From contig CAWKGZ010000012.1 in assembly GCA_963849335.1 (NCBI GenBank), positions 336,542 to 400,541 of the forward strand: a stretch of DNA of 64,000 nucleotides, read 5' to 3'. Both the position numbers and the translations under genes were made by a program. The stretch is from an uncultured Chloroflexia bacterium (GTDB taxonomy: Bacteria > Chloroflexota > Anaerolineae > Anaerolineales > UBA4823). Within the stretch, counting starts at the first letter, position 1, and each line of letters opens with the position of its first letter. The notes below the pieces were generated by a model, which did no database searches, was not told the DNA's origin, and was given only the letters and a program-made list of their open reading frames with translations. Below, in pieces: positions 17,016 through 64,000 of this stretch.

Positions 17016-17020
17016 CGCTT

Positions 17021-18553: not shown

Positions 18554-18561
18554 ATGATTTC

Positions 18562-18609: not shown

Positions 18610-18622
18610 GGATATTTTCTCT

Positions 18623-19039: not shown

Positions 19040-20294
19040 CCTGCCCGCTTTTTGCTGCCTGCGGCAGCTTCCTGGCGCGCACCTTGCGGATGCGGTGCTT
19101 GCTGACCTGCTCGACGATCAACTCCAGGTCATCTACCTGCACCGATTCCCCGCTGACCGGTACCCGGCCCATCTGTCCATAGATGAAACCGCCCAGCGTC
19201 TCGGCATCTTCCAGGGGCAGATGGCTGCCCATCAGCTCGTTGAAATCTCCCAGGTCAACCCGCCCCATAAAGATGTATTCGCCTTCAGCGACCTGGGTAT
19301 AGGGCAGCTCTTCGCCCTGGTCATATTCGTCGCGGATCTCGCCGACGATTTCTTCGACAATATCTTCCATCGTGACCAGGCCTGCCACCCCGCCGTACTC
19401 ATCGACCACCACCGCCATATGCACGCGCCGGGTCTGCATCTCAGCCAGCAGCTCGTCCACCACCTTGGCCTCGGGGACAAAATAGGCCGAGCGCAGCAGG
19501 CTATGCAGCGAATTGATTTTACTGCCCTCGCGCCACACCTTGAGCAAGTCTTTGGCAAACAAGAGACCGAGGATGTTATCCACCGAGTCCTCATATACCG
19601 GCACGCGCGAGTGGCCTGACTGTAAAAAGACATCCAGCGCCTGCTCCAGCGGTGTGTGCACCTCCAGCGCAGTAATATAGATGCGCGGCAGCATGATCTC
19701 ACGCACCAGGGTGTCGCCCATTTCGAAGATCGAATAGATCATCTGGCGTTCATCCCGTTCCAACACACCGCCCTCATGCCCGGCGTCGACCATGCTCTTC
19801 AATTCTGCCTCGGTCACCGTGCCAACGGGTTCCTGGATTCGCCGCCGGTCGAATAGCAATGGGAGCGCCAACAGCGGCAGTAAAATTATCCCCGCGGCCC
19901 GGGCTGCTGGCGCCAGGCGCATCGCCCAGGACTCTGGGCTGCGGCGAATGATCATATACAGCACCCATTCCAGCCAGAAGACCAGCACCGCTACCCCGAA
20001 GAGGATACCCGCATCCAGGGCAAGGGAAGCAGTGTCCCATTCAGCCGGGGCAATTAGAACCAGGAGCAAGGCGGCGCCTAAAAAGCGCGTCAACCAGAAG
20101 GTGAGGTTGCTGCTGGCCTGCCAGGTTTGCGGCTTCTGCAATAAACTGACGGTGCGGTTCACCTGAGCCTCTCGCTCTTCGCGCAAAGACAGCAGGCGGG
20201 CCAGGCTGGCATTCAACAACGCTGCCCGGTATACGGTGGTGAACAGCTCCAGCAGGAGCAAGATGATAAGTATGAAAATCAACCACCCATCCAT
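19017..20294 (-). CDS. CNNM/CorC-family protein (DUF21 - CBS pair - CorC_HlyC)
   Basis: N-terminal TM domain, CBS-pair region (IMLPRIYITALEV...GHSRVPVYEDSVDNILGLL), C-terminal CorC/HlyC segment (GESVQVDDLELIVEQV). Confidence 0.85.
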   Translation of the reverse strand: MDGWLIFILIILLLLELFTTVYRAALLNASLARLLSLREEREAQVNRTVSLLQKPQTWQASSNLTFWLTRFLGAALLLVLIAPAEWDTASLALDAGILFGVAVLVFWLEWVLYMIIRRSPESWAMRLAPAARAAGIILLPLLALPLLFDRRRIQEPVGTVTEAELKSMVDAGHEGGVLERDERQMIYSIFEMGDTLVREIMLPRIYITALEVHTPLEQALDVFLQSGHSRVPVYEDSVDNILGLLFAKDLLKVWREGSKINSLHSLLRSAYFVPEAKVVDELLAEMQTRRVHMAVVVDEYGGVAGLVTMEDIVEEIVGEIRDEYDQGEELPYTQVAEGEYIFMGRVDLGDFNELMGSHLPLEDAETLGGFIYGQMGRVPVSGESVQVDDLELIVEQVSKHRIRKVRARKLPQAAKSGQDGEQDDK

Positions 20295-34974: not shown

Positions 34975-35514
34975 TTACTCCATCCATTGCTCACCTGCCC
35001 AAGTTTTTCCATCACTTCCCCAATCCTCTGGATATGCCCCTTCTCGAACATATTTTGTAAAGCTAGAATATTTCCATTCCGCGGCTGATCTCGCCAGCCC
35101 ATGTTTTACCGGATTGTAATGAATGTATTCAATATGCCTGGTAAGATCAGCCTCGTCGCGAATCAGATGCTCCCAATATCGTCGCTGCCAGATATCCGCT
35201 TCGCCTTTTTCTCGGCGCGATGCATTTACACTGAGCGTTCCTTTGGTTTGCCAATGCCGGGTGAAGTGGCTTTTGATCAATCGCCACCGGGTTGAATAAT
35301 CGCTGTCATCCTGAGGCAAAGCCCAGATGGAATGGATATGTTCCGGTAAAATGACAATGGCAACGATCGTGAAGGGCATCCTACTCAACATATATTGAAA
35401 AGCATTCCTAAGGGTATCAACCGCGTCTGGTGAAGAAAATATCGGGCGGCGTTGAAAGGTTACAAGCGTGAAGAAATATGTTCCTCCAGGGATATATGTA
35501 CGACGATATTCCAT
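34975..35514 (-). CDS. REP-associated tyrosine transposase (RAYT, IS200/IS605-like Y1 HUH enzyme)
   Basis: YIPGGTYFFT, LPEHIHSIW (HUH) and YIHYNPVKHGL (catalytic Tyr) motifs. Start set at MEYRR (35514). Flanked by inverted REP-like sequences. Confidence 0.8.
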   Translation of the reverse strand: MEYRRTYIPGGTYFFTLVTFQRRPIFSSPDAVDTLRNAFQYMLSRMPFTIVAIVILPEHIHSIWALPQDDSDYSTRWRLIKSHFTRHWQTKGTLSVNASRREKGEADIWQRRYWEHLIRDEADLTRHIEYIHYNPVKHGLARSAAEWKYSSFTKYVREGAYPEDWGSDGKTWAGEQWME

Positions 35515-35597
35515 AAGAGGATTATAGCACCACTGTGAATGTTGGGTTTCGGGCTGGGTTTTATGAGGCACATACTCAATAAGCACCGCCCTCAACC

Positions 35598-37047
35598 CTC
35601 ATCTTTTATCGCAACTTTGTTCTAGATAGGCTAAACTTGAGCAGGAAGGAGAGAAGGAAATGGAACAAAGTGCGGAAGGGTTTGCAGAGCAGGCATGGGG
35701 TAAAGTAGAATTAGGTGACCGGAGGTTGACGAGGCGAGCGGTGAAGCTGGGGGCATGCATGGCGCGTAACCCTGAAGCATCGTTGCCCAGGCAAGTAAAG
35801 GATGCCAGCGCTTTGGAAGGGGCGTACCGTTTGTTGAATAACACTTGGGTAACACTCGAGAAACTACTAGCTCCCAGCTATGCGCAGACGCGTGCAGCAG
35901 CGGAAAAGATGGAAGTGGTTTTGTGGGTGAATGACCTGACCGAGTTGGATTACACTTTTCACAAGCGTGTGGAAGGGTTGGGGCCTATCGGAGATGGCAG
36001 GGGGCGCGGGCTGCTGATGCATACGACGATCGCAGTGGGGCCTGGGGAACGCGATGTTCTTGGGTTAGGGCAAGTGAAGGTATTTTTACGCGAACCCACG
36101 CCTGTACCCAAGCCAAAATGGACCCGTTCGATGGAGGGGCGGGTGTGGGAGATGGCAGCCGAGGAGATTGGGAGTGCGCCGGAGGGGGTTACGTGGGTGG
36201 AAGTATCGGATGCGGGCAGCAACTTTTTCCCCTATTGGGCCACCTGCCGGGCGCACAACAAGCATTTTTTGATTCGGGTTGCGCAAAACCGCTGGGTGCG
36301 AGAGCAAGAAGAAGATGTCGCCCACAAACTGATCGATTATGCCCGTTGGCTGCCCGCAGTAGCAGGCAGTGAACATACCATCTCGATCCCGGCCAGGAAA
36401 AACCAGGCTGCGCGCCTGGCGGAGGTTCAGATGGCCTGGGCCGGGGTGCAGGTCGCCTCTTCTTCGCAAGCGTCACCCGCGGAACGTGCACTGCCAGCCT
36501 TTTCCGCCTGGGTTCTGCGAGTTTGGGAACCCAATCCTCCCAAGGGCGTGGAGGGCCTTGAGTGGATCTTGCTCTCCTCACTGCCAGTGACCAATCTGGC
36601 AGAAGCATATGAACGCACGCAATGGTACTCATGTCGCTGGATATGTGAGGACTTTCATCAGTGTCTCAAGACTGGCTGCCAGATCGAACGTTCGCAGCTA
36701 GATGAGCGCACGGACTTGGAGGCACTGCTTGGCTTTGCGGCGCCAATTGCCCTCCGCTTGCTGCAAATGCGTCAGGCAGCCCGAGAGCATTCCGATGTGC
36801 CGGCAAGCACCGTTGTCGATCCCCTGATGGTCGAAGTGTTGGCTCAACGGTTGCAAGTGAGTGAGAAAACGATGACCATGCATGAATTTTGGCGTTTGGT
36901 CGCTCGCCTGGGTGGTTTTTTAGGTCGCAAAGGCGATCTAGATCCTGGATGGCGCACTGTTTGGTGGGGTTGGCGCTACCTGTCGGACTTGACAGATGGC
37001 GCCCGCTTGATCTTGAACAATAGAACATAGTTGCGATAAAAGATGAG
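35598..37047 (+). mobile_element. IS4-family (IS50/Tn5-transposase-like) insertion sequence, 1450 bp, apparently intact
   Basis: Perfect 18-bp terminal inverted repeats CTCATCTTTTATCGCAAC (35598-35615) / GTTGCGATAAAAGATGAG (37030-37047). 9-bp direct target duplication CCCTCAACC (35589-35597 and 37048-37056). A single transposase ORF fills the element. Confidence 0.9.
35660..37030 (+). CDS. IS4-family DDE transposase (Tn5 Tnp-like)
   Basis: N-terminus ELGDRRLTRRAVKLG...EGAYRLLNN and C-terminal YSCRWICEDFHQCLKTGCQIE are colinear with the Tn5 transposase segments LGDPRRTARLV...EGAYRF and YTHRWRIEEFHKAWKTGAGAE. Confidence 0.9.
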   Translation: MEQSAEGFAEQAWGKVELGDRRLTRRAVKLGACMARNPEASLPRQVKDASALEGAYRLLNNTWVTLEKLLAPSYAQTRAAAEKMEVVLWVNDLTELDYTFHKRVEGLGPIGDGRGRGLLMHTTIAVGPGERDVLGLGQVKVFLREPTPVPKPKWTRSMEGRVWEMAAEEIGSAPEGVTWVEVSDAGSNFFPYWATCRAHNKHFLIRVAQNRWVREQEEDVAHKLIDYARWLPAVAGSEHTISIPARKNQAARLAEVQMAWAGVQVASSSQASPAERALPAFSAWVLRVWEPNPPKGVEGLEWILLSSLPVTNLAEAYERTQWYSCRWICEDFHQCLKTGCQIERSQLDERTDLEALLGFAAPIALRLLQMRQAAREHSDVPASTVVDPLMVEVLAQRLQVSEKTMTMHEFWRLVARLGGFLGRKGDLDPGWRTVWWGWRYLSDLTDGARLILNNRT

Positions 37048-50918: not shown

Positions 50919-51896
50919 ATGAAGCTAGATATTGCTCTTGAAATGATGGAAAATCTCGATGACGATCAACCGGTCGTGAAGTTCGAGAAGATCAAAAAAA
51001 CAGCTCGCTCTGGCGCAGAAAGGCAGCCAGCCAGCGCCGCCCAGTTTGTCCAAACTCAGGATGACTCGCGCAAATCCTTTGAGTTCTCCTACCGCGCTTC
51101 CCGGCACGAACAGGGTTGGCTGCTGAACTCGCTGGGCGGCTTTTACGAGCGGGGCTGGATTGCGGATATTTTACGCATGGTCAAGGGCGGCAAGGAAGCG
51201 TCCGTCTACCAATGCGCTTCGGGGCAGGCTGTCCAGGCGCCATCCCTGGCAGCCAAGGTTTTCCGCCCGCGCCAATTTCGCAACCTGAAGAAGGATAATC
51301 TCTACCGCCTCGACCGGGAGGTGCTGGATGAGAACGGCAACCGCATCGTCGACCTGGGCATGCTCAAGGCGCAGCGCAAGCGCAGCGTGTACGGGGAGCA
51401 GATCCGCCACCAGTCCTGGCTGGCGCACGAGTTCCAGGCACTGAAAACCCTGCACGCCGCCGGCGCGGACGTTCCACAGCCGTATGAGATGGGCGAAAAC
51501 GCTATCTTGATCGGCTTCATTGGGGACGAGCTGACCGCGGCGCCGACACTCAATACGGTGCGGCTGAAGCGGGGGGAGGCCAAACCGCTCTTTGAGCGCG
51601 TGCTGCACAATGTCGACCTGATGCTGGACAATGACATCGTCCACGCCGACCTTTCGGCCTACAACATCCTCTACTGGCAGGGGGAGATCACGCTGATCGA
51701 TTTCCCCCAGGTCATCTCACCGCGCCGGCACCGCAGCGGCTACCAGATCTTCCGCCGCGATATCACCCGCGTCTGCGAGTACTTCGCCCACCAGGGACTG
51801 CGCACCGATCCCACCCGCCTGGCGGCTGATCTGTGGCAGGCGCATGGGTATCGCACCGTTCAGGAGAGCCAGCCGGAACTGCTGGAGAGCGATTAA
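50919..51896 (+). CDS. RIO-type atypical serine protein kinase
   Basis: KGGKEASVYQC (compare RIO STGKEANVY), HADLSAYNILY (catalytic loop HGDLSEYN) and LIDFPQ (metal-binding) motifs. Confidence 0.8.
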   Translation: MKLDIALEMMENLDDDQPVVKFEKIKKTARSGAERQPASAAQFVQTQDDSRKSFEFSYRASRHEQGWLLNSLGGFYERGWIADILRMVKGGKEASVYQCASGQAVQAPSLAAKVFRPRQFRNLKKDNLYRLDREVLDENGNRIVDLGMLKAQRKRSVYGEQIRHQSWLAHEFQALKTLHAAGADVPQPYEMGENAILIGFIGDELTAAPTLNTVRLKRGEAKPLFERVLHNVDLMLDNDIVHADLSAYNILYWQGEITLIDFPQVISPRRHRSGYQIFRRDITRVCEYFAHQGLRTDPTRLAADLWQAHGYRTVQESQPELLESD

Positions 51897-53920
51897 ACGG
51901 TTTTCTTCTTGCCATGGGCGCATATACCGGTGTGGAAGACACAGGCGGTGCGCTGGCACTGCCATGCCTGGCGCAATGGCTCGATATCCGGCTGCTTTTC
52001 GGGCCATTGCGCGATGCCCGTCCACCGGCGAACCAATCCCAGCGCCACCCGGTCGCGGTCATCCAGATCGGCTTCTTTTTGTGCTTCCAGGTGTGCCTGC
52101 AGAGCCCATAAGGCGTTGTAGCAGCCCATGGTCAGCATCTTGAGCGCATTCTCCTGGCGGTAGCCCAGGCGCTCGGTGAACTGCAGCGTGCCCAGGGGCA
52201 TCTCCTGCGGGTAGATTTTGACCTCCTCGACATGCAGCGGCAAGCCATTTGCTACCTGGTCATCCGCCCAGCGGCTCATCCGTTCGAGGATACCCTCGGC
52301 ATCTCTGCCCAGGTAGCCTTTCAATCCCAGCTGGCGGGCTTTGTCGCGCAGATGGCTTTCGATCTGCCCGCGCTGTGCCTCGCTCAGGTCCATCAGGTTC
52401 TCCTGGAAGGACTCCAGGACCAATTTCAACGCCTGCCCCAGCTCTTCGCCGCGCTGCCCGAAGGTGTTGATCGTGCTGACCGTATTGGTATCGCTGGTCT
52501 GCTTGGCAATACCCTGGATCTCCAGCGTGCGCTGTACCACCTGGAAGAAATTGGGATCTTTGACTTCATCCGGCGCGACCTTCGGTTCTGCCCCGAGGAA
52601 GATGACAAACAGTTCCAGCGCCACCTCCCGCCTGGAGTGCCTGCTTTGCTCAGCCCATTCACGCACAAAGTCCACCGCGCTGTTGGAGGGGGTGTTGTCG
52701 ATAGCGCCGCCGTCCACGTAGGTGTCGCTCTCCTTGGGGAAGAAATCGCACATCTCGGCAGAATCGCGCCAGCTGGCAATGAGGCGCTCCCAACTGTCCT
52801 TCCCCTCTGCAGTCTCTCCCTTGATGGACTGATATGCCTGAGCCAGAGCCGCCTCGACCTGGGGGTCGCCCAGCCAACCGTTGAGCAAGCGATACAAGAG
52901 GGCATTTTCGGGATCGCTGGCAGGGTAAATTTCGGTGAGCGGGAAGGGGGTGAACACGCCAGGGAAGCGCCCTGAGCAGATGGCAGCGTCGATGGCCGCC
53001 GGATTTCCGGGAACCTGCAGGCGGAAGCTGCCCAGCGGGATGGCATCCGGATCATATCTCTGCAGCCGCCAGGCTTGCTTGTGCATAAAGCGCACAAAAT
53101 TCTCCGGCGGCATATAGGCGGAGATCTCCAGGCGCCCGGTGCGGTAGTTGGCGCGTGTCAGGCGCACCTCGATGCCCAGACGGGCATAATCGCGCAGTGT
53201 GCGCCTCGGGTCGACCAGGATAAATTTCTTGACCCCGGGTTCATCGGCGGTCATCGCCCCCGCCATGTGCTCCGGGCGGAGCGGGGAGACGGGCTGGGTA
53301 AAGATATCCCTGATCTTGCGATCTTCGCCGGGGGGAATGAGCGAACGATCCATGCCAAAACGCCTCAGGTAGGTGCGGATGGCCTCCTGCAGCAGCGCTG
53401 TGCGCTGCTCCTTGAAGATGCGCAGCACCTGCCCTGCTCCTCCCAGGCGCTCACCCAGTTCGCGCGCCAACGCGAGCACCGCGGCCCACACCCCGGGCTC
53501 GGGTAGCGCCCCGCGCTGGGGATCGGTCCACCACCAGCCGAGGCGGACCAGCTGCGGCAGGCTCAGGTTGAAGCGCAGCAGATCATCCTTCAGCTTGCCC
53601 AGCGGGCCCTCCGGGCTGTCGTCGATGACGCGTTTATCCGGCATCAGCAGCCAGGCATGGTGGTAGGCCTTGACCAGCGGGTCCAGCGCCTCTACCGCCT
53701 GCAGCGGGTCGGCGAGCACTTCGCCCGGCAGCCCGCGCTTCTGGTACAGGTACTCGGCAAAGAAAGCGCTGTTCATCGCCCCGATCGACGAGCCGGTGAT
53801 GACATCGAACTCCATCCCGGTAATATGAAAAGCATGGATGACGCCGGCCTCGTACAGGCCCTTGGCGCCGCCGCCGGTCATGACAAAGCCACGTTTTTTG
53901 AGTTTACCAATAACGCTCAT
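51893..53920 (-). CDS. patatin-like phospholipase with a roughly 400-aa C-terminal extension
   Basis: GGGAKG oxyanion motif, GSSIG nucleophile elbow (53771-53797), VDGGAIDN Asp motif. Start preferred at MSVIGK (53920, GGAGAAG RBS). Confidence 0.8.
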   Translation of the reverse strand: MSVIGKLKKRGFVMTGGGAKGLYEAGVIHAFHITGMEFDVITGSSIGAMNSAFFAEYLYQKRGLPGEVLADPLQAVEALDPLVKAYHHAWLLMPDKRVIDDSPEGPLGKLKDDLLRFNLSLPQLVRLGWWWTDPQRGALPEPGVWAAVLALARELGERLGGAGQVLRIFKEQRTALLQEAIRTYLRRFGMDRSLIPPGEDRKIRDIFTQPVSPLRPEHMAGAMTADEPGVKKFILVDPRRTLRDYARLGIEVRLTRANYRTGRLEISAYMPPENFVRFMHKQAWRLQRYDPDAIPLGSFRLQVPGNPAAIDAAICSGRFPGVFTPFPLTEIYPASDPENALLYRLLNGWLGDPQVEAALAQAYQSIKGETAEGKDSWERLIASWRDSAEMCDFFPKESDTYVDGGAIDNTPSNSAVDFVREWAEQSRHSRREVALELFVIFLGAEPKVAPDEVKDPNFFQVVQRTLEIQGIAKQTSDTNTVSTINTFGQRGEELGQALKLVLESFQENLMDLSEAQRGQIESHLRDKARQLGLKGYLGRDAEGILERMSRWADDQVANGLPLHVEEVKIYPQEMPLGTLQFTERLGYRQENALKMLTMGCYNALWALQAHLEAQKEADLDDRDRVALGLVRRWTGIAQWPEKQPDIEPLRQAWQCQRTACVFHTGICAHGKKKTV

Positions 53921-54011
53921 AGTTCTCTTCTCCATCTTTACGTGCTGGTTTAATTCGTCGCTACGCTCCGGCTCACACGAGGAGTGCTCACACATGAAGC
54001 CTATTCAACGC

Positions 54012-55817
54012 TTATCTCTTCATCAACCTCATGATCATTTCCCTATCTTGGAGTGCGGCTTCATAGTTGGGTTCGATCTCCAGGGCCATGTCAATATAAA
54101 CCAAAGCCTTTTGATATTCTCCGCGCAACATGGCTACGCTGCCAAGACCATTCCAGGCGCCAGCGTCACTTGGATCTTGATCACGCACAGCTTTGAACAT
54201 CCTCTCGGCTTCTGATAACGCCCGGTAAAACTCTTCGCTATGCTGGCTATCGCGCATTACCATGGCATAGTTCTTGAAGGTATAGGCACGTGCATTCTGC
54301 AGCCAATAATCCTCGGGGTAAAGCGGTAAGATTTGATCCAATATCTCCAGTGTCTTATCGATCGCTAGAGCAGCATTGATGAGGTCACGAGGATAGTATC
54401 TAAAGAATTCTAACTGTAACTGGTATAAGGCTTGTTTGCGTTCGTTGAGATTTATTTCACCGGCTTTTTTCGGTGGCAGCCGCTTAACCCCCCGAGTATT
54501 TCGATCTTCGTCGATCGCTTGCTGGTAATATTTATCTTTCTGGATACAATTTATTCGAACTCTGCGGAAGTCTTCTTTATCCCCAATATTTGCTTTAGCG
54601 GTAACATCATAAACCCCCTCGCCAGCAAATTTTGCGCTCTCGTAATACCATTTCCCCTGGTAATGGGAAATCTTACATTTACCTATTTGTTCAACGGGAA
54701 TCCCCTCAGGATGCGTCCGGACTTCAATATCTACGTTAGCTGTCTCAGCGAATGGGGTGGAGGCTAAGATGGGAAAAGAGCCTTCAAGGATTCGCCCCTG
54801 GTTTTCACCCAGAGGTATCTCTTCATTTTCAACCGGTGAATCGACTGAAAAACATGCCAGGTATGGAAATTGGATCATGACCGGCTGGTCGATTTGCTCT
54901 TTCGCCACCGTCGTTTGCGAAGGTATATCCCGGTACGTCGCGTGCAGGACCCAGGATGGTTGATCATCAACAACAAATCTAAAAAAGCCATCCGCAAGCG
55001 TGATTACCTGATCAATATCCAGTCCTATTACATCCACACTTGCATTCTCTACCGGTCGCCCATCTTCAAATACCACACTGCCAAGGATGGTGTAATTTTC
55101 TTTTGCTGCAGGCGCGGGGAAAATCTCAATCCCATACGAGCTCTTCAAGCGAGCGCTGAGCAGTGAGCGGTCCATTTCAAGCTTGTTGCGCGCATTCTCA
55201 CCGCACAGGTCACGCAAGGCACTGAATAGGATCTGTTCGCCCTTGTTGTTAGGCGGCATCCAGTTTGGCACCATGCTTTCCAGGATGTCCAACGGCTTCT
55301 GCTCTACTTCGACGACTGAAAGCAGCTTCAGGCTGTCTGCAGAGTTCTGATGCCCGGGTGACAGCAGCTGTCTGACGCTTTTTTCGATTTTTCCCAGCGC
55401 CTGGTTGCTTAAAATCTCATCCCACTCAGCTAAATCCTTCGCCCCCCGCGCTCGCTCGCAAAGCGAATTCAATTTAGAGAACCAGTTGTCCAGCTTACCC
55501 AGGCATATCACCAGCCGGTCCTCGTTCTTGAAGTCAGCATCCCAGCGCTGATTTTCGAAATCTTCCCACAGCTTTTGCCATTTCTTGTTGCCCGGTACCG
55601 GTTCAATGTTTTCTTTTACCTGGATGAAGCGGTAATGACTGTCCGCATACTGCACCACGATATCATCCACAAACGCACGCGCTTCAGATCGAACGGTAGT
55701 GATCTGCTGAGTCAGGTCACTGATCCTTGGATCCAGCATACGCCCCAGATACAAGGCTGCGACGGTATTCTGGTAATAAATTCCCGACTGGGTGGTCGAT
55801 CCGCCTCTTATGGACAT
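54012..55817 (-). CDS. three-part protein: N-terminal PD-(D/E)xK-like (Cap4/DUF4297-like) nuclease head, carboxypeptidase-regulatory-like beta-sandwich, C-terminal TPR repeats
   Basis: N-terminus SGIYYQNTVAALYLGRML ... VDDIVVQY...RFIQVKEN (D...QxK). Middle GSVVFEDGRPVENASVDVIGLD...ADGFFRF. C-terminus AGAWNGLGSVAMLRGEYQKALVYIDMALEIEPNYEAAL. Clearly more AT-rich than neighbouring genes. No P-loop seen. Confidence 0.55.
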   Translation of the reverse strand: MSIRGGSTTQSGIYYQNTVAALYLGRMLDPRISDLTQQITTVRSEARAFVDDIVVQYADSHYRFIQVKENIEPVPGNKKWQKLWEDFENQRWDADFKNEDRLVICLGKLDNWFSKLNSLCERARGAKDLAEWDEILSNQALGKIEKSVRQLLSPGHQNSADSLKLLSVVEVEQKPLDILESMVPNWMPPNNKGEQILFSALRDLCGENARNKLEMDRSLLSARLKSSYGIEIFPAPAAKENYTILGSVVFEDGRPVENASVDVIGLDIDQVITLADGFFRFVVDDQPSWVLHATYRDIPSQTTVAKEQIDQPVMIQFPYLACFSVDSPVENEEIPLGENQGRILEGSFPILASTPFAETANVDIEVRTHPEGIPVEQIGKCKISHYQGKWYYESAKFAGEGVYDVTAKANIGDKEDFRRVRINCIQKDKYYQQAIDEDRNTRGVKRLPPKKAGEINLNERKQALYQLQLEFFRYYPRDLINAALAIDKTLEILDQILPLYPEDYWLQNARAYTFKNYAMVMRDSQHSEEFYRALSEAERMFKAVRDQDPSDAGAWNGLGSVAMLRGEYQKALVYIDMALEIEPNYEAALQDREMIMRLMKR

Positions 55818-55891
55818 AGCTTACCCATTCCTTGCATCTCTAGCATTCCTACCGGGGAGGGGCGATTCTCTCTGCTCCTCCCCAGTGTTTT

Positions 55892-57223
55892 TCACTCCAC
55901 TGGATCAAAACTAATATCGATATACGGCAACGGCGCTCCGCTCACCTGTTCTTCCAGGTCGGTGCGCTGCGGTTGGGGCACGTGGGGTTTGACCGACTGC
56001 GGCTTTTTCGCTTCAACGTACGCCGTGCGGCTGTTCACCACCCGCCTCCCAATCGTCTCTATCAGCTCGGCATTGGGGATCGAAGGCCAGCGCGTCGTCC
56101 GCTCTGTCGAAGCCACGGCGTAAGCGCGAGGGGTTTCCCCCGGCTGGGGAAGGGGCAACAGCGCGTCCAGGATCTGGTTGATGGCCGGAATTTTCCCTTT
56201 TTTATCCGCCGGCGCCCACGGCGTGGCATTCTCGCTGCCGTGGTGGCCAATTTTGAGAAAGTCCAGCGGCTGGGCAAGGTCGGCATGCCGCTCCTGCCAC
56301 ATCACATTCCAGCTGCTGTTGCTCTTTCCTGGCTTCACCGCAATGTTATTTTTACCGCTCCACTCGGCGTCGCCGGGGAAGAGCAGGCGGCGCCCGTGCC
56401 ATTCGAGCAGCAGCACCACGCTCAGGTTGTTCTCCGTTTTGCCGGCCAGCTCCGCTGCCGCCAGCGCGTTGGCCTGGATGCGGCCGCGCAGCAGCTCAAA
56501 ATCCTGGGCACTGATGTTGCGCGGTGTGCGCACCACTTTCTGCTCTTCGCCGGGAAACAGCGCCTGGTACCCCTCCGCCATCCCCTGCGGTGCAGCGCCG
56601 CTCGGCGCATTCATCAGGCCGGTACCACCCAGGTAGTAAGCATCGATTTCTGCCATCGGGCCGAGAACCTTGAGCTCGACCGCCGGGTCTTCAAAGATCT
56701 TCAGCTCGCCAGGGGGCGTGTCGGCGGTCACATACACGGGCAAAATGCCTTTGTCCATGCCCTTGCACAGCAAATCGACCGCTTCTTCCTTGGACAGGCT
56801 GAGCAGCTCTTCGACCTGCGCTTTCATCTCCCCGGCAGCAAAGGCCGAGAGGCCCCTCAGGGCGCGCTGGGCAGCCGCCTTTAATGCCTGAAAGCCTTGG
56901 GCTTTGGGATTGAGCCGGTCGAATGCCGGGCTGAGCCAGATGTGGCCGATTTCGATATTTTTGAAGAACTCTTCTTCAAAGCCTTTGTGATGGTCTTCGT
57001 GGGGGTGGCTGACTACAAGCAGGTCAAGGCGTTTTTTGCCCGGTGAACCCGCCGGAAGCTCGTCCTCCAGGTGCTTGATACACTCGCCCAGCCGGTCCAG
57101 GGTATTGAATTTGTTGCCACAGTCGATCAGGATATGGACTTCCCGGTGCAGGTCGGGCACGCGCAGGTAGATGCAGTCGCCCAGGCCAACGTTGTACAGG
57201 CGCACTAATAATTGACCGTCCAT
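55892..57223 (-). CDS. metallo-beta-lactamase-fold hydrolase
   Basis: VGLGDCIYL...ILIDCG and VVSHPHEDHHKG (HxHxDH, 56987-57007), later KIGHHGS. GAGGAGG RBS. The start overlaps the upstream gene's stop by 19 nt. Confidence 0.8.
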   Translation of the reverse strand: MDGQLLVRLYNVGLGDCIYLRVPDLHREVHILIDCGNKFNTLDRLGECIKHLEDELPAGSPGKKRLDLLVVSHPHEDHHKGFEEEFFKNIEIGHIWLSPAFDRLNPKAQGFQALKAAAQRALRGLSAFAAGEMKAQVEELLSLSKEEAVDLLCKGMDKGILPVYVTADTPPGELKIFEDPAVELKVLGPMAEIDAYYLGGTGLMNAPSGAAPQGMAEGYQALFPGEEQKVVRTPRNISAQDFELLRGRIQANALAAAELAGKTENNLSVVLLLEWHGRRLLFPGDAEWSGKNNIAVKPGKSNSSWNVMWQERHADLAQPLDFLKIGHHGSENATPWAPADKKGKIPAINQILDALLPLPQPGETPRAYAVASTERTTRWPSIPNAELIETIGRRVVNSRTAYVEAKKPQSVKPHVPQPQRTDLEEQVSGAPLPYIDISFDPVE

Positions 57224-59280
57224 CCGTCCTCCTCTTTGTCATACTCGCCGGCGCGCAGGTGCGGGGTCACCTCGAAACGCACGACACCTGCCTGCTCGAA
57301 AGCCGTGACCGGCCTGGATGCTTCACTGAAACGGCTCTCCGCCTGGGTGGGGCCAACCAGCCCATTGCGGATGACCGCCGACAGGTAGCCCAACAGGGCT
57401 TGCTTGCGCTGCCGTCCAACCTCTAAATCCTTGAGCAGCCCCAACTCCAATTTGGTGGGGATATCGTTACGCTTGAGCGCCGTGGGGGCGGCTTGATAAA
57501 TTGCCAGGCGCCGGCGGATATCTTGTTCTTCAGTTTCAGCGAGGTGCTCGGTGCCGGGTTTTCGGAACCAGGAGAGCAGGTTGCCGCGCTCGTCAAAGAC
57601 CAGCGTCCCGCCGCAGTCCAGGTTGTAGGTCTTGCCATTCCAGGTCTTGAAATCCAGGTCAGCCTCTCGGTCTTTCTTTAGCTCGACAACCTCCTGCCAG
57701 GCGTATTGCAGCACGATTTCGCGCGGCAGGCGCTCAGCCGCCGCTCCGATTTTAATGGTATCGTACAAGTCCACCACGCGCACATCCTGGTGGGGAGGGA
57801 TGTGCAGCAGACGGCGATTGTCGCTCAGGAAATAGTAGGCCGCAGTGCGCGAGCGGGAGAGACGCCCAATGTCGGGATAAACGAAATCCATCCGCTCTTG
57901 GGACAGCACTTCTCTGAAGGCACAATCTTCGAGCAAATCCTTCCCCGGTTTATACTGGCAGGTGCACAGGCCGCGTGCATGAAAGACATCCAGCATCGCC
58001 GGGCGGTAGCCCTGCTCATCCACCGGATTGGTGAGGATATCATTGCGGATCACCGCCCTGGCGTAATCAATGAATTGGATGTCGCAGGGCGGACACAGGT
58101 CAATTGGCTGTAAAGCCACCCGGCGGAAGCGATCCGCCGCCCAATACAAGGCCTGGGCGGGGGTCACTTTTTTCCCTAACAGGTTCTTCTGCAGGTGCTT
58201 GGTGGCAATGGTGACCAGGATCTCCCACATGGCACCGGTCAGCACCTGCGAAACAGTGTGCGGCACCAGGCTGCCAGCAACATCTTTCATTTTTAGCTTA
58301 TTAAAAGCGGTACGCAGGTAATCTCGCCCCGCAACTTCCTGCCCAAACTCCTTAGCCAGGTCAGCCACAACATTGGCTCCTGCCAGGCCTGCGGATGTCT
58401 GGCTGACAAAACGGCGGATATCATGATTGAACAGCGCCATCAGGATGGCGGTCAGGTCGCCAATGAACTCGTGAAAAGCGGCGGTTTGCAGCGACGAGAG
58501 CTGGTTGTACATTGGCCGGATGCCATCCAGGATGGCATGCCCGGTCTCGTGGGCGATGATGTCATGCGAGAGGCAGGTGTAGCGCGGGCTCTGCTGGTCG
58601 CCGTAATAGTAAAACTGCAGCGATTTGGAATGCTGGTCGTAATACGCATTATCTCCATAGCCGGCATGCGGGACGATGATCAGGCGGTTGCCGTCAAAAC
58701 CCCAGGGCACCGGGCGTCCCAAAGCCCAGGGTTCTTCATAAAATTCCAACACGCGCTGGACAACCGCCCAGGCATTCAGCTGGTGAAAATAGGGGTTCTT
58801 GACTGTTTTATCGATGAATTGCTGATACTGCTGCTTATATTTTTCCGGGTTCTTTATCTGCTTGGGATCATCAATATCTTCAGGGACCTTGGGTGCACCC
58901 GGCAGCCAGTCTGTCTCAGAAATGGGGGTGTGAAACCAACCTTCTACTTCATCCCAAACCACCGGATCCAGCAGCGTTTGGGTATCCGCGTTAAAATCGA
59001 CCACTGCAATGCGCGCACTGGTTGGGCCGGCGCTTATATTCTTCTCTAACCGCACATAAATTTCCTGCACCCCCAAGGTGGGATTTTCCAGCGCCACCAG
59101 GGGGTCTTTGATGAACACCGGAAGCTTCATCATCAAGCCCACATCCTGGCGGGTTTCCTTAGCGATCTGGTAGTATACCGGGTACAGGTCGTCCGTCACC
59201 GATTTATTCAGCTTGATCATGGCGCCGCGCCGCCATGGCTTTTGCGGGCCATTTTTATTATTCGTTTTCTGATCAGTCAT
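57205..59280 (-). CDS. thermolysin-like (gluzincin) zinc metalloprotease, no signal peptide
   Basis: IAHETGHAILDG (HExxH, 58537-58551), followed about 20 aa later by AAFHEFIGDL (ExxxD third ligand). Start set at MTDQK (59280, GGAGGA RBS) rather than the longer track ORF. Confidence 0.7.
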   Translation of the reverse strand: MTDQKTNNKNGPQKPWRRGAMIKLNKSVTDDLYPVYYQIAKETRQDVGLMMKLPVFIKDPLVALENPTLGVQEIYVRLEKNISAGPTSARIAVVDFNADTQTLLDPVVWDEVEGWFHTPISETDWLPGAPKVPEDIDDPKQIKNPEKYKQQYQQFIDKTVKNPYFHQLNAWAVVQRVLEFYEEPWALGRPVPWGFDGNRLIIVPHAGYGDNAYYDQHSKSLQFYYYGDQQSPRYTCLSHDIIAHETGHAILDGIRPMYNQLSSLQTAAFHEFIGDLTAILMALFNHDIRRFVSQTSAGLAGANVVADLAKEFGQEVAGRDYLRTAFNKLKMKDVAGSLVPHTVSQVLTGAMWEILVTIATKHLQKNLLGKKVTPAQALYWAADRFRRVALQPIDLCPPCDIQFIDYARAVIRNDILTNPVDEQGYRPAMLDVFHARGLCTCQYKPGKDLLEDCAFREVLSQERMDFVYPDIGRLSRSRTAAYYFLSDNRRLLHIPPHQDVRVVDLYDTIKIGAAAERLPREIVLQYAWQEVVELKKDREADLDFKTWNGKTYNLDCGGTLVFDERGNLLSWFRKPGTEHLAETEEQDIRRRLAIYQAAPTALKRNDIPTKLELGLLKDLEVGRQRKQALLGYLSAVIRNGLVGPTQAESRFSEASRPVTAFEQAGVVRFEVTPHLRAGEYDKEEDGWTVNY

Positions 59281-59320
59281 CTCTGCATCCTCCAGAACTG
59301 CCCCATCTCTTGGGCATCTC

Positions 59321-61288
59321 CTACTTATAACTTGCCACCAGCTTACCCGCCTTACCACCCGTGACACGCACCCAGATCGGGTTGGTGAAGCAGCAGAAAA
59401 GCTCACCGTCCGGGCCGGCGGTTTGGGCGAACAAACGGCAGTAGCCCTGTAACCCGTTCAATTGGATCGTCACGGTATCCCCTTTCTGCAGGATCGTTTT
59501 CACCGGCTTTCGACGATGGCGGAAGCAGGTGACCAGCTCGACCTGCTCCGCCGGGCCAAATTCGGGCGTGGTGAACGCCTGGATCTTCAGATCAATATCC
59601 TGACTGCCCGAGACAGTAATCACCTCCCCCAGATGGGCGGTTTTACCCTGCTGCTCTACGGAGAAGGTGACGATCGGGCCGTCTGTGACCACGCAGGAGC
59701 CTTTGCGCATCGCCGCCAGGATCTCTGCCTCCGGCGGGATGGCATCCGTGTAGGCATCCGGCAGGTATACGACCGTGCGTACCTTGCCAAGCGCATCGTC
59801 ATCGACAATCAGCCGCCGGCGGTAATCCCAGCTCATGCCGACGCTGTAATTGAAGCTACCATGCGCATCTGAGCCTGCCAGGAAGACCGGGCGCAAGCCG
59901 GGAAGCCGGTCAGCTGCAGACCAGTTTGCCAGGCCCTGGCGCAGTGCCAGCTCCCATTCGCCATCCGCCCAGGCTTTAACTTTCTTGATTCGTTTTTGAT
60001 CCTGCTTGATCAGCTCGGCGGGGTCTGACCACTTTTTACTATCGAATGGGTTGAGCGTCAGGTGTGCGCTGCGCCGGATGCGCGCATTCCAGAACTCGAA
60101 GCCCGTCAGGCGGGGGTGGGATAAATGTTCATTCACCCATTTTCCGGGAGGCGGCGGCTGAGCTAACTGGAAGGGGTGGGCGGCGAAGAGCAGCGTCTGT
60201 GGTGGGAGCAGGGTGAGGACTTTTTCAAAGGGGTGGACCTTGCCAAACATGCGCCGGGCTTCATCCTTTGAATAGCCACCGTTCTTGGCTGCCTGGTGCA
60301 GCAATGCCTGGATGGTCTCCTGGAACACCTCGGTCATGAAACCGCCCTCATCGGGCAGGAAGGCGCCCTCGACCATCTTGTCCATTCCCCCAAAAGCCAG
60401 CATGTGGACCAGGGTGTCCCCCTTGCCAAGCAGGGTGATCTCTTCACCCAGGATGCAGCGGAACTGGTCGTTGGAGACGTTTGGGTTCGCCGTGTCGGCT
60501 TTCAAGCGCTCCCAACGGGTTTGCGGGCTGACGTCCGGGTCAACGTCATCAAGGTCGCAGGAATGATCGGTGATCACCAGCCAATCCAGGCCAAGAGCAT
60601 GTGCCGCCGTACACGACTCGGGCACCGGGTTGCCAAGCTCCTTGATGTCGTTGGTATACACCGAGTGGTAGTGGGTGTCGCCATAGAACCAGCGCCGGGG
60701 CTGGTGTGTATTTGCCGCCCGGCTTAACGGCAGGGCATGCCCGGCGAGGAATGTTTCCAGATGGATGTAGATATGGGATGGCTTATCATAGGGGTAATAG
60801 CTGCCATGAAAACCCACCCGCAGGCGCAAAGGTTTGCCGCGCACAGCCCCCTTGAATTTTGCCAGGGGGATCTTCAGGCTGTGCCACCAGGTTCTGAGTT
60901 GGAACATGCCATTGCCGTTCACCCTGGGCAGGTCGGCGGGCAGCAGCGCCAGCACGTCCTCCCAGACCACGCCAGGCATCCACTGCTGAATTTTCAGCAT
61001 ATCCAGCCGCCAGGGACCCTTGGCGGGCTTCACGATATTGGTATCTCTGACCAGGAAGAGCAGCGGAATTTTATTTTGATCTGGCTCAAGCCTCCAGGGA
61101 GCGTCAGCCCAAAATTCGGGTTGGTTTTTCCCGACCGGAGTCTCGGCACTGAGGGGCAGCGGTGCGACGGTAGGCAAGCCAGGCGTAGGAGCGCTTACCT
61201 TGGGCGGTTTTACGCCAAAGACGCCTTTGAGGAACTTGAGGGCCTGATCTTGCTGCTGCTGGTAATCTTTATCATGATTGCTCATCAT
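59321..61288 (-). CDS. PHP-domain metal-dependent phosphoesterase with large N- and C-terminal extensions
   Basis: FYGDTHYHS (60663-60682), LVITDHS and AGSDAHG motifs typical of the PHP fold. 655 aa. GGAGGTGA RBS. Confidence 0.7.
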   Translation of the reverse strand: MMSNHDKDYQQQQDQALKFLKGVFGVKPPKVSAPTPGLPTVAPLPLSAETPVGKNQPEFWADAPWRLEPDQNKIPLLFLVRDTNIVKPAKGPWRLDMLKIQQWMPGVVWEDVLALLPADLPRVNGNGMFQLRTWWHSLKIPLAKFKGAVRGKPLRLRVGFHGSYYPYDKPSHIYIHLETFLAGHALPLSRAANTHQPRRWFYGDTHYHSVYTNDIKELGNPVPESCTAAHALGLDWLVITDHSCDLDDVDPDVSPQTRWERLKADTANPNVSNDQFRCILGEEITLLGKGDTLVHMLAFGGMDKMVEGAFLPDEGGFMTEVFQETIQALLHQAAKNGGYSKDEARRMFGKVHPFEKVLTLLPPQTLLFAAHPFQLAQPPPPGKWVNEHLSHPRLTGFEFWNARIRRSAHLTLNPFDSKKWSDPAELIKQDQKRIKKVKAWADGEWELALRQGLANWSAADRLPGLRPVFLAGSDAHGSFNYSVGMSWDYRRRLIVDDDALGKVRTVVYLPDAYTDAIPPEAEILAAMRKGSCVVTDGPIVTFSVEQQGKTAHLGEVITVSGSQDIDLKIQAFTTPEFGPAEQVELVTCFRHRRKPVKTILQKGDTVTIQLNGLQGYCRLFAQTAGPDGELFCCFTNPIWVRVTGGKAGKLVASYK

Positions 61289-61394
61289 TCACCTCCATAC
61301 TTCTAATGCCCGCATTTCACCTCATTTGGTATTAACCAAGAGATGCACAGGCAAGGGTTAGGATTTGGATAAGTTGAAAATGGCCGGGATAGCC

Positions 61395-62129
61395 TCATTC
61401 AAGCTTACCGGTGAACCGCTTCGCTGTATTCAGGATGAAATTCCACAGAGGCCAGGGGCTGGTGCCGATGATGAACGCAAACGCCACCATGATTGTCGGC
61501 ACGGACAGGTCGATGGTGATCGCATTGCTGTTCGCCAGGGTGAATTCCAGCTTTACCAGCGAGAGCAGCAGGACGGTGATCAACACCAGAATCGGTGTGG
61601 CGACAATGTGGGCAAGATGCATCAGCACGCCCTCCCGGTAAAAACGATGGCTGCGCAAGTACCAGCCGGTGGTGAAGATTTTGCTCACCAGGATACCTGC
61701 CAGCCCCCAAAGTAATATTTCAAGGTAGCGCAGGGGGTCTTCTGACCAGATACTGAAACCATCGCCTGAATCGACGAGAAATAGATGCGCTACCATGTAC
61801 AGGATGATCACCGCCCAAAAGAGACCAAACACGATCCAAAAAAATACGCGACCCGCTTTGTCATCGACGGTTTCTGCGATGCGTTCCAAATAAATCTTGA
61901 TATCCGTCCGGTCTTGATCCATGTCAAGCTGCTGCGGTTCGCTGGCGAAACTTCCCGTTTCCAGGGCAACAAAGGTCCACATGCCTGGCGTTGGAATGTC
62001 CAGGGTAAATTCGCCACCATCGTCGGTCGTTGCGTATTTGGTTTGACCGGCTTTGTAGGCTTTTATGGTGGCATAAGAAACGCGCTCTTTTCCCCCTGAT
62101 CGATAAATCGTACCTGAAGCTGTAGACAT
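61395..62129 (-). CDS. membrane protein: N-terminal carboxypeptidase-regulatory-like beta-sandwich plus about 4 TM helices
   Basis: GTIYRSGG..ATIKAY...TTDDGGEFTLDIPTPGMWTF, then hydrophobic helices (VFFWIVFGLFWAVIILYMVAHLF, and others). AAGGAGG RBS. First gene of the co-directional cluster. Confidence 0.5.
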   Translation of the reverse strand: MSTASGTIYRSGGKERVSYATIKAYKAGQTKYATTDDGGEFTLDIPTPGMWTFVALETGSFASEPQQLDMDQDRTDIKIYLERIAETVDDKAGRVFFWIVFGLFWAVIILYMVAHLFLVDSGDGFSIWSEDPLRYLEILLWGLAGILVSKIFTTGWYLRSHRFYREGVLMHLAHIVATPILVLITVLLLSLVKLEFTLANSNAITIDLSVPTIMVAFAFIIGTSPWPLWNFILNTAKRFTGKLE

Positions 62130-62452
62130 AATTCCTCCTTGCGATGATTGGGTTGGGGATTAGACGAATAAATAAAATAGAAGCCGTCATGTCAAGTGAC
62201 GACTTCTTGAAGGTAGCAGAACAATGGCAACGATGGCAACAAGACCCTTCTGTCACCTAACCGGGCAGTGCTTAAATTCATTTCACAATAGTATTATATA
62301 TCCCTATTGTCATAAGTCAACACTTTGAGCGAGCAATGTGATCTCCTAGCGCCTAGACAAATCCAGAGAATGATGAACACCATGTGTTCAAAAAAGGCGG
62401 CTATATATTGGGGCTATCTACGCCGCAACGAAGAACTAAAAATCGGCTACCC

Positions 62453-62749
62453 TGTGGATAACTCGCGAAAAACTGTGGATAAAGTGCTTTAACTGGGGAG
62501 AAACCGGGAATTCTATCTGATTTTGTTTTTCTGCTTACCCCTATATGTGGGGGGTGCTTTTGGGCACCCCCCATGGAGCACAACTGCCTGTGGGATGGGG
62601 AAAACAGGCTCTTTTTCTCCAATGTTATCCCGGTTCGCCCTGTGGAGAGAAAACACGGTTTTACCACCCAGGGATGGATGGCTGACCAGGTCGCCCCCCA
62701 TATCCCCGGCAGCCCAATCCCGCACAGGTGTTTTCTCCACTTATCCACA
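62453..62749. promoter_or_regulatory. DnaA-box cluster (three perfect TTATCCACA boxes) in a 664-bp AT-rich non-coding region
   Basis: TGTGGATAA at 62453-62461 and at 62474-62482 (same orientation, 21 bp apart). TTATCCACA at 62741-62749 (opposite orientation). Degenerate boxes at 62641-62649 and 62733-62741. AT-rich tracts at 62288-62320 and 62764-62799. Confidence 0.55.
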
Positions 62750-62793
62750 ACCCCTACTACGACGACTATATATATACTGATAACAATAAAAGG

Positions 62794-64000
62794 TTAATCT
62801 TCTCCCTTCAAATTCAGCGGCAAGTAGATCACCCAGGACTCAGGCAGCAGGGGCAGCTCAAAATCCTGAGTAACCAGCGTATCAGCCACAACGGTAACTT
62901 CGCTCACCGTGACTGGTGGATAACCGTCGGCGCTGACCGTGGCGGTGTAAACACCGGCGGGAAGTAAGGAAGTGTAATAACCGTTGGAGTCGGTCAGGGT
63001 GTTGAAAGTGTACCCCAGCGGGTTGGTGAAGACCAGGGTGGCGCCCGGAATGGGATCAGCACTGCTGGCGGCGCTCACCGTGCCGTCCAGCGAGCCGGTA
63101 GGGAGCCGGCAGTTGCTCATGTGGGCGAAGGTGGCAAGGGATGCTTTGACGAAGTCGGTGTAGTAGGGCATGTTGAGATATTGCAGCTGGTCATTGGTGG
63201 TGTGATAGTAGTCGTTAAAATCAGAGTCGTCTTCGATTGCCAGGATGGAGACGTAATTGAAGTCCCAAAAGGAAGCATGGTCGCTGGCGCCCATACCGGT
63301 ATCAAAAATATCTGCATCCAGGTTTATCGCATAGGCGGTAATGACATCGCTAAACAGTTGCGCCAGTTCCAGCGTGGCAGGCATCTCGTCCCAGGCGTGC
63401 AGGTCGATCCCCGGGCGGTTATCAGAGTTCCATGCGATCATATCCAGATTGATGTACCCCAGGATGGTCTCCTTCTGCAGCCTGGACCGCTCGGCATATT
63501 CATAACTGCCGAGCAGGCCCTGTTCCTCACCGGTCCAGAAGGCAAAGCGCAGCGTGCAGCCCGAGTAGTATTGGGAGAATATCTTCGCCGCCAACATGGT
63601 CGCCACCGAGCCGCTGGCATTGTCATCCGCGCCAGGGGCGATCGAGCCGGTGGGCATGTCGTCCAGGTGACCGCCGATAATGTAAATATTGCGCGGGGTG
63701 ACCAACCCGGGCATCTTGCCGATCACATTGGGAGGCGTGCCGGTTTCCCAGGTGTGGTATTCCACCGTCAGCCCCAGGTCGCTCAGGTACTCGCCGACGT
63801 ATTGGGTGGCTTTCTGGATTGGTTCACCGCTGTAGGTGTAGCGGGTATTGATGTCATAAGGTTCCCCTCCAACAGTGACCAATGTCTCGCCGCTCAGGCC
63901 GCTGGTCAGGTCATACACCTCGCTCTCCGTGACCTGGTCGATGATTTGTTGGACGAGCGGGTCAGGGACGACCACGGCGGGGAAGATGTCGGCTTCTGCA
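62794..64000 (-). CDS. M28-family aminopeptidase with C-terminal carboxypeptidase-regulatory-like domain (5' end runs off the window)
   Basis: GGHLDD, PGADDNASGSVATML and TGEEQGLLGS zinc-ligand motifs. The frame stays open to base 64000. The C-terminus reads GATLVFTNPLGYTFNTLTDSNGYY...GVYTATVSADGY. Confidence 0.8.
   Translation of the reverse strand, partial: AEADIFPAVVVPDPLVQQIIDQVTESEVYDLTSGLSGETLVTVGGEPYDINTRYTYSGEPIQKATQYVGEYLSDLGLTVEYHTWETGTPPNVIGKMPGLVTPRNIYIIGGHLDDMPTGSIAPGADDNASGSVATMLAAKIFSQYYSGCTLRFAFWTGEEQGLLGSYEYAERSRLQKETILGYINLDMIAWNSDNRPGIDLHAWDEMPATLELAQLFSDVITAYAINLDADIFDTGMGASDHASFWDFNYVSILAIEDDSDFNDYYHTTNDQLQYLNMPYYTDFVKASLATFAHMSNCRLPTGSLDGTVSAASSADPIPGATLVFTNPLGYTFNTLTDSNGYYTSLLPAGVYTATVSADGYPPVTVSEVTVVADTLVTQDFELPLLPESWVIYLPLNLKGED

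Follow-up and report, generated by a model that had tools for sequence, protein, structure and literature searches.

The locus described here raises the question of whether a nuclease head of the Cap4 type can be controlled without the switch or partner that usually accompanies it. To our knowledge, such heads are known only with SAVED in the cyclic oligonucleotide-based antiphage signalling systems (CBASS), with a nucleoside triphosphatase (NTPase) of the STAND type (signal transduction ATPases that have numerous domains) in Avs, with SMC in Lamassu, with a helicase in Hachiman, or with HerA. The gene in question lies on the minus strand at positions 54012..55817 of a 64,000-nucleotide stretch of contig CAWKGZ010000012.1 from an uncultured Chloroflexia bacterium; this whole stretch is hereafter referred to as the window. 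It starts with ATG and encodes a protein of 601 aa, in which two beta-sandwiches and a tail of tetratricopeptide (TPR)-like repeats come after a predicted Cap4-type nuclease head. The reading that we favour, with a probability of roughly 0.45, is that the protein is an NTPase-independent, single-chain sensor-effector defence nuclease with a logic similar to that of Dsr1/Dsr2. The protein probably adds a new variant to the single-protein immune sensor-nucleases.

Domain architecture of the encoded protein

Full-length orthologues of the protein were found in several metagenomes at 66-81% identity. Comparison with the closest of them, at locus L006, gave a ratio of nonsynonymous to synonymous substitution rates (dN/dS) of 0.19, which indicates purifying selection on the gene. 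The open reading frame (ORF) is a genuine, accessory gene in an Anaerolineales-like chromosome.

The head occupies aa 1-235 (55113..55817, minus strand, as are all parts of the gene given below). The Pfam profile Cap4_nuclease (PF14130) matched it below threshold (E 2e-4; 22 bits, the gathering score being 26.2) and only in part, aligning aa 4-70 with profile positions 1-58 of 200. In the homologue P0012, which is 50% identical over the shared region, the same profile scored above threshold (E 2.6e-11, 44.6 bits) and the match spanned positions 1-198 of 200. PADLOC returned weak matches of the N-terminus to LmuA, HamA, and PDC-M54A, the HamA match covering aa 4-81 only. The AlphaFold2 (AF2) model of the head alone reached a mean predicted local distance difference test score (pLDDT) of 90.2 and a predicted TM-score (pTM) of 0.87. 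A Foldseek search with this model gave 16 matches with E <= 0.0015, all of them to LmuA (9hr5), CBASS Cap4 (6vm5, 6vm6, 6wam, and 6wan), HamA (8zue), or Avs3 (8dgc), with a probability of 1.0 and query-normalised TM-scores of 0.45-0.56. The best match was to LmuA 9hr5 (E 4e-5); the match to HamA 8zue had an E-value of 4e-4. The head is thus, as judged from the structural model, a complete Cap4/DUF4297-type PD-(D/E)xK nuclease domain. The original prediction, made from the sequence without database searches, had confined the nuclease to the first ~75 residues; both the head model and the profile match of P0012 extend it to about 235 aa.

In an alignment of 21 sequences, E45 (55683-55685) and K68 (55614-55616) were invariant, and D51 and D52 (55662-55667) and Q66 (55620-55622) were at least 90% conserved. 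This motif aligns with the region that holds the active site D45/Q58/K60 of E. coli HamA, the mutation of which leads to the loss of both nuclease activity and defence. The alignment therefore indicates that the catalytic D...QxK of the head is intact. The kinship to Cap4 and STAND nuclease heads proposed in the original prediction is borne out by this motif, by the Foldseek matches, and by the sequence relatives of the head outside the orthologue group, which were found at 33-42% identity at the N-termini of NACHT/NB-ARC STAND proteins. One such relative at locus L002 consists of a Cap4-like head, NB-ARC, and WD40 domains and is encoded directly downstream of an orthologue of the gene. Another, of 1183 aa with a Cap4-like head and a NACHT domain, is encoded on the IMG/VR viral contig L049 (4980-8531) beside a phage portal gene.

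The relatives encoded next to the gene bear on one alternative explanation, according to which the protein serves a canonical STAND protein with a Cap4 head as partner, decoy, or regulator and, through its own homologous head, either co-assembles with the head of the latter or titrates it. At two loci, L002 (10671-14783) and L007 (2115-2888), the next gene downstream carries a head 41-44% identical to that of the protein, in L002 continuing into the NB-ARC and WD40 domains, and Cap4 heads are known to act as homo-oligomers. However, no such STAND gene adjoins the target gene in the window or in L001, L005, and L006, and with its catalytic residues intact the protein is no obvious dead decoy. 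We consider this explanation very unlikely.

No Walker A motif was found in the 601 aa by regular-expression search, and no P-loop match was obtained in Pfam, NCBIfam, and PADLOC scans, which agrees with the original prediction; SAVED was not detected either. A cryptic P-loop domain in the middle region was rejected on the basis of the same negative searches. In the model, beta-sandwiches occupy the position of the NTPase. The lone match to the Walker A expression in the operon, AAELAGKT, lies within the product of a neighbouring gene for a protein of the metallo-beta-lactamase (MBL) fold; it has no support from NTPase profiles and was treated as a chance match.

Instead of an NTPase, the head is followed by three further parts. 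The first beta-sandwich (aa ~241-318, 54864..55097) lies between the head and the module shared with the relatives described below and resembles CarboxypepD_reg (PF13620), which matched aa 243-302 below threshold (E 9e-4); the strands in the model extend over aa 242-317. The second, Ig-like sandwich (aa ~328-425, 54543..54836), was modelled with lower confidence (strands at aa 332-425) and is conserved in 29 clusters of homologues (E < 1e-30). A profile search assigned it to no Pfam family, and a search of the PDB gave only weak Ig-like similarities. The C-terminal part (aa 427-600, 54018..54539) is composed of eight helices forming about four TPR-like repeats; TPR_1 scored above the Pfam threshold at aa 554-585, supra-threshold TPR matches extended over aa ~552-585, and the PDB matches of the helical part were TPR proteins, the short array resembling those of the peptide-binding adaptors FKBP51/52. 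The TPR part is also the most diverged and most AT-rich portion of the gene. The AF2 model of the full-length protein had a pLDDT of 81.9 and a pTM of 0.46, and Foldseek with this model returned only TPR and tandem-Ig matches (e.g., FKBP51) and none on the head. The predicted succession of a nuclease head, a sandwich, and C-terminal TPRs was therefore correct in outline, except that there are two sandwiches, the second of which had been overlooked. Neither a transmembrane (TM) segment nor a signal peptide was found in the protein, and we propose that it is cytoplasmic and single-chain.

The shared sandwich-TPR module and a proposed switchless mode of action

To collect relatives of the region behind the head, aa 236-601 were submitted to an exhaustive search by HMMER, which yielded 29 clusters at E < 1e-30. 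The core common to them comprises the second sandwich and the helical/TPR part (aa ~316-601), and in front of it the heads are exchanged. Three types are linked to the core through the first sandwich: the Cap4 nuclease head of the target protein, P0002-P0007, and P0012; an Mrr_cat head in P0008; and a Trypsin_2 head in P0011. Membrane-anchored relatives have a TM helix in the place of the first sandwich. One TM helix links TIR_2 heads (P0026, P0042, and the proteobacterial loci L009 and L010) and a DUF4062 head (P0038), and coiled-coil heads occur both with a TM helix and without one (P0027 and L008, the latter from an Anaerolineales metagenome-assembled genome, MAG). Most of the 330-370-aa members carry merely a short tail and one TM helix. 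Heads of the Cap4, Mrr, trypsin, TIR, and DUF4062 types match the repertoire of N-terminal effectors in modular defence systems (bioRxiv 10.1101/2025.09.30.679545). As the heads found on the module belong to the effector set that circulates in modular defence, we interpret the module as a unit that is portable between proteins and would act as a sensor or adaptor. It is a small, previously undescribed, putative binding module and a candidate for a novel family of sensors or adaptors.

The family is rare and occurs in few environmental lineages. A scan of the GTDB species representatives with a full-length alignment found no relatives of the target protein, and when the module alignment was used for a second scan, the only relatives recovered were those with TM, TIR, or coiled-coil heads, from an Anaerolineales MAG, an uncultured proteobacterium, and a Sedimenticolaceae MAG. 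A scan of metagenomes added one further useful locus, L030. In the proteobacterial loci L009 (7398-8870) and L010 (4305-5780), an N-terminal TIR domain is followed by one TM helix and the sandwich-TPR module. The positive-inside rule gave conflicting orientations for the TM-anchored relatives: the TIR and DUF4062 forms appear to have the N-terminus inside and the short-tail forms the C-terminus inside.

Comparison with known defence systems demonstrated that the protein shares its type of head with several of them. The N-terminal Cap4-type PD-(D/E)xK effector and the C-terminal TPR-type repeats are shared with the Cap4-headed STAND proteins Avs3 and Avs7, and the head is structurally similar to that of Avs3 (8dgc). 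However, the protein has no STAND NTPase, Walker A motif, or winged-helix domain and contains two beta-sandwiches instead, and its roughly four TPR repeats differ from the large bilobed sensors of Avs. The nuclease fold and the D...QxK motif are shared with CBASS Cap4, but Pfam, PADLOC, and NCBIfam gave no match to SAVED/CARF or to a CD-NTase in the protein and its five scanned neighbours. LmuA of Lamassu and HamA of type I-B Hachiman are the best structural matches of the head, whereas the C-terminal domains are unrelated to theirs. Furthermore, the six scanned genes of the operon (51893-62129) include neither the SMC/ABC ATPase LmuB nor LmuC of Lamassu, and neither a DUF1837 domain nor the helicase HamB of Hachiman.

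A direct fusion of an N-terminal effector to a C-terminal repeat sensor with no NTPase switch is shared, at the level of architecture, with Dsr1 and Dsr2, in which the effector is SIR2 rather than a Cap4 nuclease. Dsr1 possesses the Avs7 sensor but no STAND NTPase (PMC13581612) and thus provides a precedent for the loss of the NTPase with retention of the sensor. Therefore, the absence of the usual switch, to which the original prediction drew attention, is unusual for Cap4 heads, whereas the logic as such has been described before. Searches of Pfam and of the PDB with the second sandwich gave no informative match, and no kinship of the module to known sensor families was detected, although Dsr was not compared specifically. 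By analogy, the protein, which lacks the defining features of CBASS Cap4, Avs, Lamassu, and Hachiman, is most like the switchless effector-sensors of the Dsr type. In a limited search of the literature, no account of this sandwich-TPR module behind a Cap4 head was found.

The evidence on the domains and on the gene context is solid, whereas the defence function, the DNase activity, the oligomerisation on ligand binding, and the nature of the ligand are inferred. According to the reading that we favour, the N-terminal Cap4-type PD-(D/E)xK domain would be the effector, a DNase, and the Ig-like sandwich with the short TPR would be the part that determines binding and specificity. In the resting state, the head would be monomeric or occluded and hence inactive. 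Binding of a trigger, which may be a peptide or surface of a phage-derived or partner protein, to the sandwich-TPR module would bring the heads together; their assembly would turn on DNA cleavage, and the infection would be aborted. Assembly may act as the switch because heads of the Cap4 type would have activity only in the dimeric or tetrameric state. Such dependence on oligomerisation is suggested by the heads of Avs3 and Avs7, which tetramerise on activation (PMC13581612), and by the best structural match of the head, 9hr5, which is an LmuA tetramer bound to DNA. If this reading is correct, a Cap4 effector can be controlled without nucleotide-driven machinery, and the logic of Dsr1/Dsr2 extends to nucleases.

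Several observations weigh against this reading. No named defence family was matched above threshold, and the PADLOC and NCBIfam matches were weak and restricted to the head. With about four repeats, the TPR part is nearer to the adaptors FKBP51/52 than to the sensors of Avs and Dsr, which envelop phage proteins. The relatives of the module are for the most part small proteins anchored in the membrane in which no effector can be recognised, which means that the module may be an anchoring or adaptor device and not a sensor. The constant linkage to the MBL gene (seven of seven loci) suggests that the protein may not act alone. In addition, the arrangement of the domains relative to one another is unreliable in the model, as indicated by the pTM of 0.46, and the rarity of the family, which has no such member among the GTDB species representatives, also counts against a defence nuclease of this kind.

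An accessory and mosaic gene in a variable island

The genes around the target are arranged on the minus strand in the order M28 peptidase with a CarboxypepD_reg-like (CPDreg) domain, CPDreg-TM protein, PHP/CehA-type metallohydrolase, M4-like metallopeptidase, MBL-fold protein, target, and patatin. The whole order is repeated in L002, and parts of it are found in L001, L005, and L006. A further comparison was with L047/L048, the backbone of which is nearly identical to that of the window (amino acid identity 98.6% for GlgC, 99.8% for MFS, and 96.6% for RIO). L047/L048 contain the M28 gene, the gene of a 245-aa protein, and the peptidase, MBL, and patatin genes, and have neither the target nor the PHP gene. 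In L047, the patatin gene directly follows the MBL gene, the stop codon of the latter overlapping the start of the former. The blastn alignment of the window with L047 stopped at the MBL stop codon and restarted at aa 31 of patatin; hence, a segment of about 2.0 kb (53906..55906), consisting of the target gene and short flanks only, is absent from L047. Thus, between the MBL and patatin genes, the target gene is cleanly present in one backbone and absent from the other, as a polymorphism of 2 kb. The PHP/CehA gene, which is absent from L047 and L005, forms a second clean indel (~59215-61304).

The region surrounding these indels (~53900-64000) is itself variable. Its genes are 65-91% identical to those of L047 (the peptidase 65%, the CPDreg-TM protein 79%, and the MBL 84%), whereas the flanking genes are 97-99.8% identical. 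The much greater divergence of the island as compared with its flanks points to a hypervariable, recombining island. The accessory status of the gene, which speaks for the favoured reading of a defence nuclease, is supported by a 2-kb indel that lies in this diverged island, within a backbone of 97-99.8% identity. The junction between the MBL and patatin genes also receives other cargo: the target and a 238-aa ORF in L006, the target with a gene for an HNH-AAA_21 protein and a 281-aa ORF in L001, and the target with the Cap4-NB-ARC-WD40 gene in L002. In L001 (11851-15650), the target orthologue is separated from fragments of the patatin gene by the gene for an HNH domain joined to an AAA_21 ATPase (723 aa) and by the 281-aa ORF. 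Other island genes of L001 are fragmented as well, owing to either pseudogenisation or frameshifts in the assembly.

The base composition of the gene was consistent with the AT-richness reported in the original prediction. The GC content was 0.486 against a mean of 0.596 for the 46 ORFs of the window (z = -3.2), and the GC content at third codon positions (GC3) was 0.538 against 0.706 (z = -2.4). Among the genes of the window, it ranked second in AT-richness after an IS200-like transposase gene. However, the recent acquisition deduced from this composition can be maintained only in part. The clean presence or absence of the gene in an otherwise nearly identical backbone (L047) agrees with it, but the gene is mosaic, and the orthologues in L001, L002, L005, and L007 lie 8-9 GC points below their own flanks. 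As syntenic orthologues in more distant genomes share the low GC content, it is a persistent property of the cassette, and recent acquisition by this particular genome was ruled out as the whole explanation.

The mosaic structure was evident from the distribution of substitutions between the target and its orthologue in L006. The number of synonymous substitutions per site (dS) rose from 0.29 in the head and 0.31 in the first sandwich to 0.84 in the second sandwich and 1.67 in the TPR part, while purifying selection was retained along the whole gene. In parallel, GC3, which was 0.65 in the head, dropped to values of 0.39-0.52 in the parts towards the C-terminus. A dS much higher in the C-terminal module than in the head, with purifying selection throughout, is expected if the part responsible for specificity is exchanged between alleles. 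We therefore interpret the gene as a mosaic cassette undergoing recombination between lineages, in which the C-terminal part is swapped most often.

These data also bear on the alternative that the protein has no role in immunity and is a housekeeping or niche-specific DNA-processing enzyme, or a degenerating hitch-hiker in a variable region. The failure of any defence family to match above threshold would fit this alternative, as would the restriction of the family to few environmental lineages and the presence of neighbouring hydrolases (M28, PHP, and patatin) that could be metabolic. Nevertheless, a dN/dS of 0.19 reflects purifying selection, and both the presence/absence polymorphism and the mosaic structure argue against it. 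Moreover, the heads swapped on the module are all classic effectors of biological conflict, and it is STAND proteins that bear the closest relatives of the target head, one of these being encoded next to a portal gene on a viral contig. We regard a non-immune role as distinctly unlikely.

The upstream peptidase-MBL pair and other genes of the locus

The gene directly upstream of the target (55892..57223, minus strand) encodes a 443-aa protein of the MBL fold with the motif HPHEDHH. It was matched by the PADLOC profiles LmuA-MBL (E 1.7e-14) and RTasMBL (E 3.6e-12) and by the NCBIfam profiles 6A-MBL (E 3.4e-11, 42.9 bits against a cut-off of 220) and Avs1a (E 5e-7, 28.8 bits against a cut-off of 420). 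The matches to LmuA-MBL, 6A-MBL, and Avs1a were confined to the N-terminal half, and all four lay under the curated cut-offs; at the level of sequence, this half resembles the MBLs associated with defence. The preceding gene (57205..59406, minus strand) encodes a 733-aa M4/thermolysin-like metallopeptidase without a signal peptide. The motif HETGH...EFIGD was read from the sequence, and the Pfam match to Peptidase_M4 was sub-threshold (E 0.002); the true start is likely M43, near 59280. Searches of the PDB with the sequences of the MBL and the peptidase gave no match. The peptidase gene runs 19 nt into the MBL gene, both in the window and in L045, L046, and L047.

In each of the seven loci for which upstream DNA was available, the gene immediately before that of the target type encoded an MBL homologue; the locus of the Mrr-headed paralogue (L007) is one of them. 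This context had escaped the original prediction. In L005 and L030, the MBL was 34% identical while the target was 66-68% identical. An intact gene of an M4-like metallopeptidase preceded the MBL gene in four of the seven loci, and fragments of it were found in a fifth (L001). The MBL family as a whole is large, with more than 1,100 matches; the few of them with a named source are mostly from Anaerolineales. The pair of peptidase and MBL genes also occurred without the target, in varied neighbourhoods (L045, L046, and L047). Near the pair in L045, at 14749-19335, are genes for an nSTAND1-WD40 protein (1532 aa), a CHAT-SIR2 protein, and a C25-like peptidase, an arrangement resembling a defence island.

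Protease-associated MBLs have been described as zymogens that are converted into dsDNA nucleases by two cleavages and that pair with many sensors; the proteases that gate them belong to the trypsin-like, caspase-like, and S8 classes (Evans et al., 2025; PMC12642450). The locus has in common with these systems a protease gene that overlaps the gene of a defence-like MBL, and the family of the target includes a trypsin-headed member. In contrast, the protease of the window is M4-like and falls outside the three described classes, and the target is encoded by a separate gene with a nuclease head and is not a sensor fused to the protease. By analogy, the M4-like peptidase and the MBL may constitute an undescribed module in which a metalloprotease gates an MBL zymogen.

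A functional tie of the target to this pair is possible. In the corresponding alternative to an autonomous nuclease, the target would be an accessory of the pair, its short TPR docking on either of the two partner proteins, peptidase or MBL. As a co-sensor, it would pass a signal on to the protease; alternatively, it would itself be a second latent effector, which the protease licenses by cutting the linker, in parallel with the protease-gated MBL zymogens among the Avs2- and Avs4-associated MBLs. The position of the MBL gene argues for such a tie, since it was maintained in seven of seven loci, even beside the Mrr-headed paralogue and with MBLs only 34% identical, as does the 19-nt overlap of the peptidase and MBL genes in every locus examined. 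Likewise, the N-terminal half of the MBL is similar to defence MBLs, zymogens of this type pair with many sensors (PMC12642450), the head of P0011 belongs to a protease class known to gate MBLs, and the short TPR is comparable to peptide-binding adaptors of the FKBP51 type. However, L045, L046, and L047 have the pair but no target, and more than 1,100 MBL homologues stand against about 10 orthologues of the target; the wide distribution of the pair without the target shows that it is self-sufficient and speaks against a dependence of the pair on the target. Furthermore, no metallopeptidase is among the known gating proteases, the MBL matches remain under the curated cut-offs, and the adjacency may reflect a shared insertion hotspot, as the junction takes other cargo (L001, L002, and L006). 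We consider a role as an accessory of the pair possible but doubtful.

A broader proposal appears unlikely to us. In this proposal, the Ig-like sandwich and short TPR (aa ~316-601) would be a new portable, NTPase-free immune sensor, joined to soluble Cap4, Mrr, or trypsin heads or, by a single TM helix, to cytoplasmic TIR or DUF4062 heads. The TM forms would be TIR receptors similar to Toll-like receptors, with an extracytoplasmic TPR, and the soluble form in the Anaerolineales island would act together with MBL zymogen nucleases of a fourth class, gated by a metalloprotease.

The 74-nt spacer between the MBL and target genes contains a GC-rich inverted repeat of 11 pairs (55854..55883), which is conserved in L006 and resembles a terminator on the opposite strand only. 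Apart from this hairpin, scans for promoters and terminators revealed nothing beyond the expectation from shuffled sequences. The other genes scanned lie on both sides of the target and the pair, on the minus strand. The PHP/CehA-type metallohydrolase (59321..61288, 655 aa) matched NCBIfam NF038032 (E 1.8e-19). The protein encoded in the left part of the island (61395..62129, 244 aa) combines a CarboxypepD_reg-like domain with three or four TM helices. The patatin-like phospholipase (51893..53995, 700 aa; Pfam Patatin, E 8e-13) is conserved from aa 31 on, and its likely start is M26, at 53920; it is 89.6% identical to its counterpart in L047. Elsewhere in the window, at 34975-37030, a gene of an IS200-like Y1 transposase (206 aa) adjoins that of a Tn5-like DDE transposase (456 aa).

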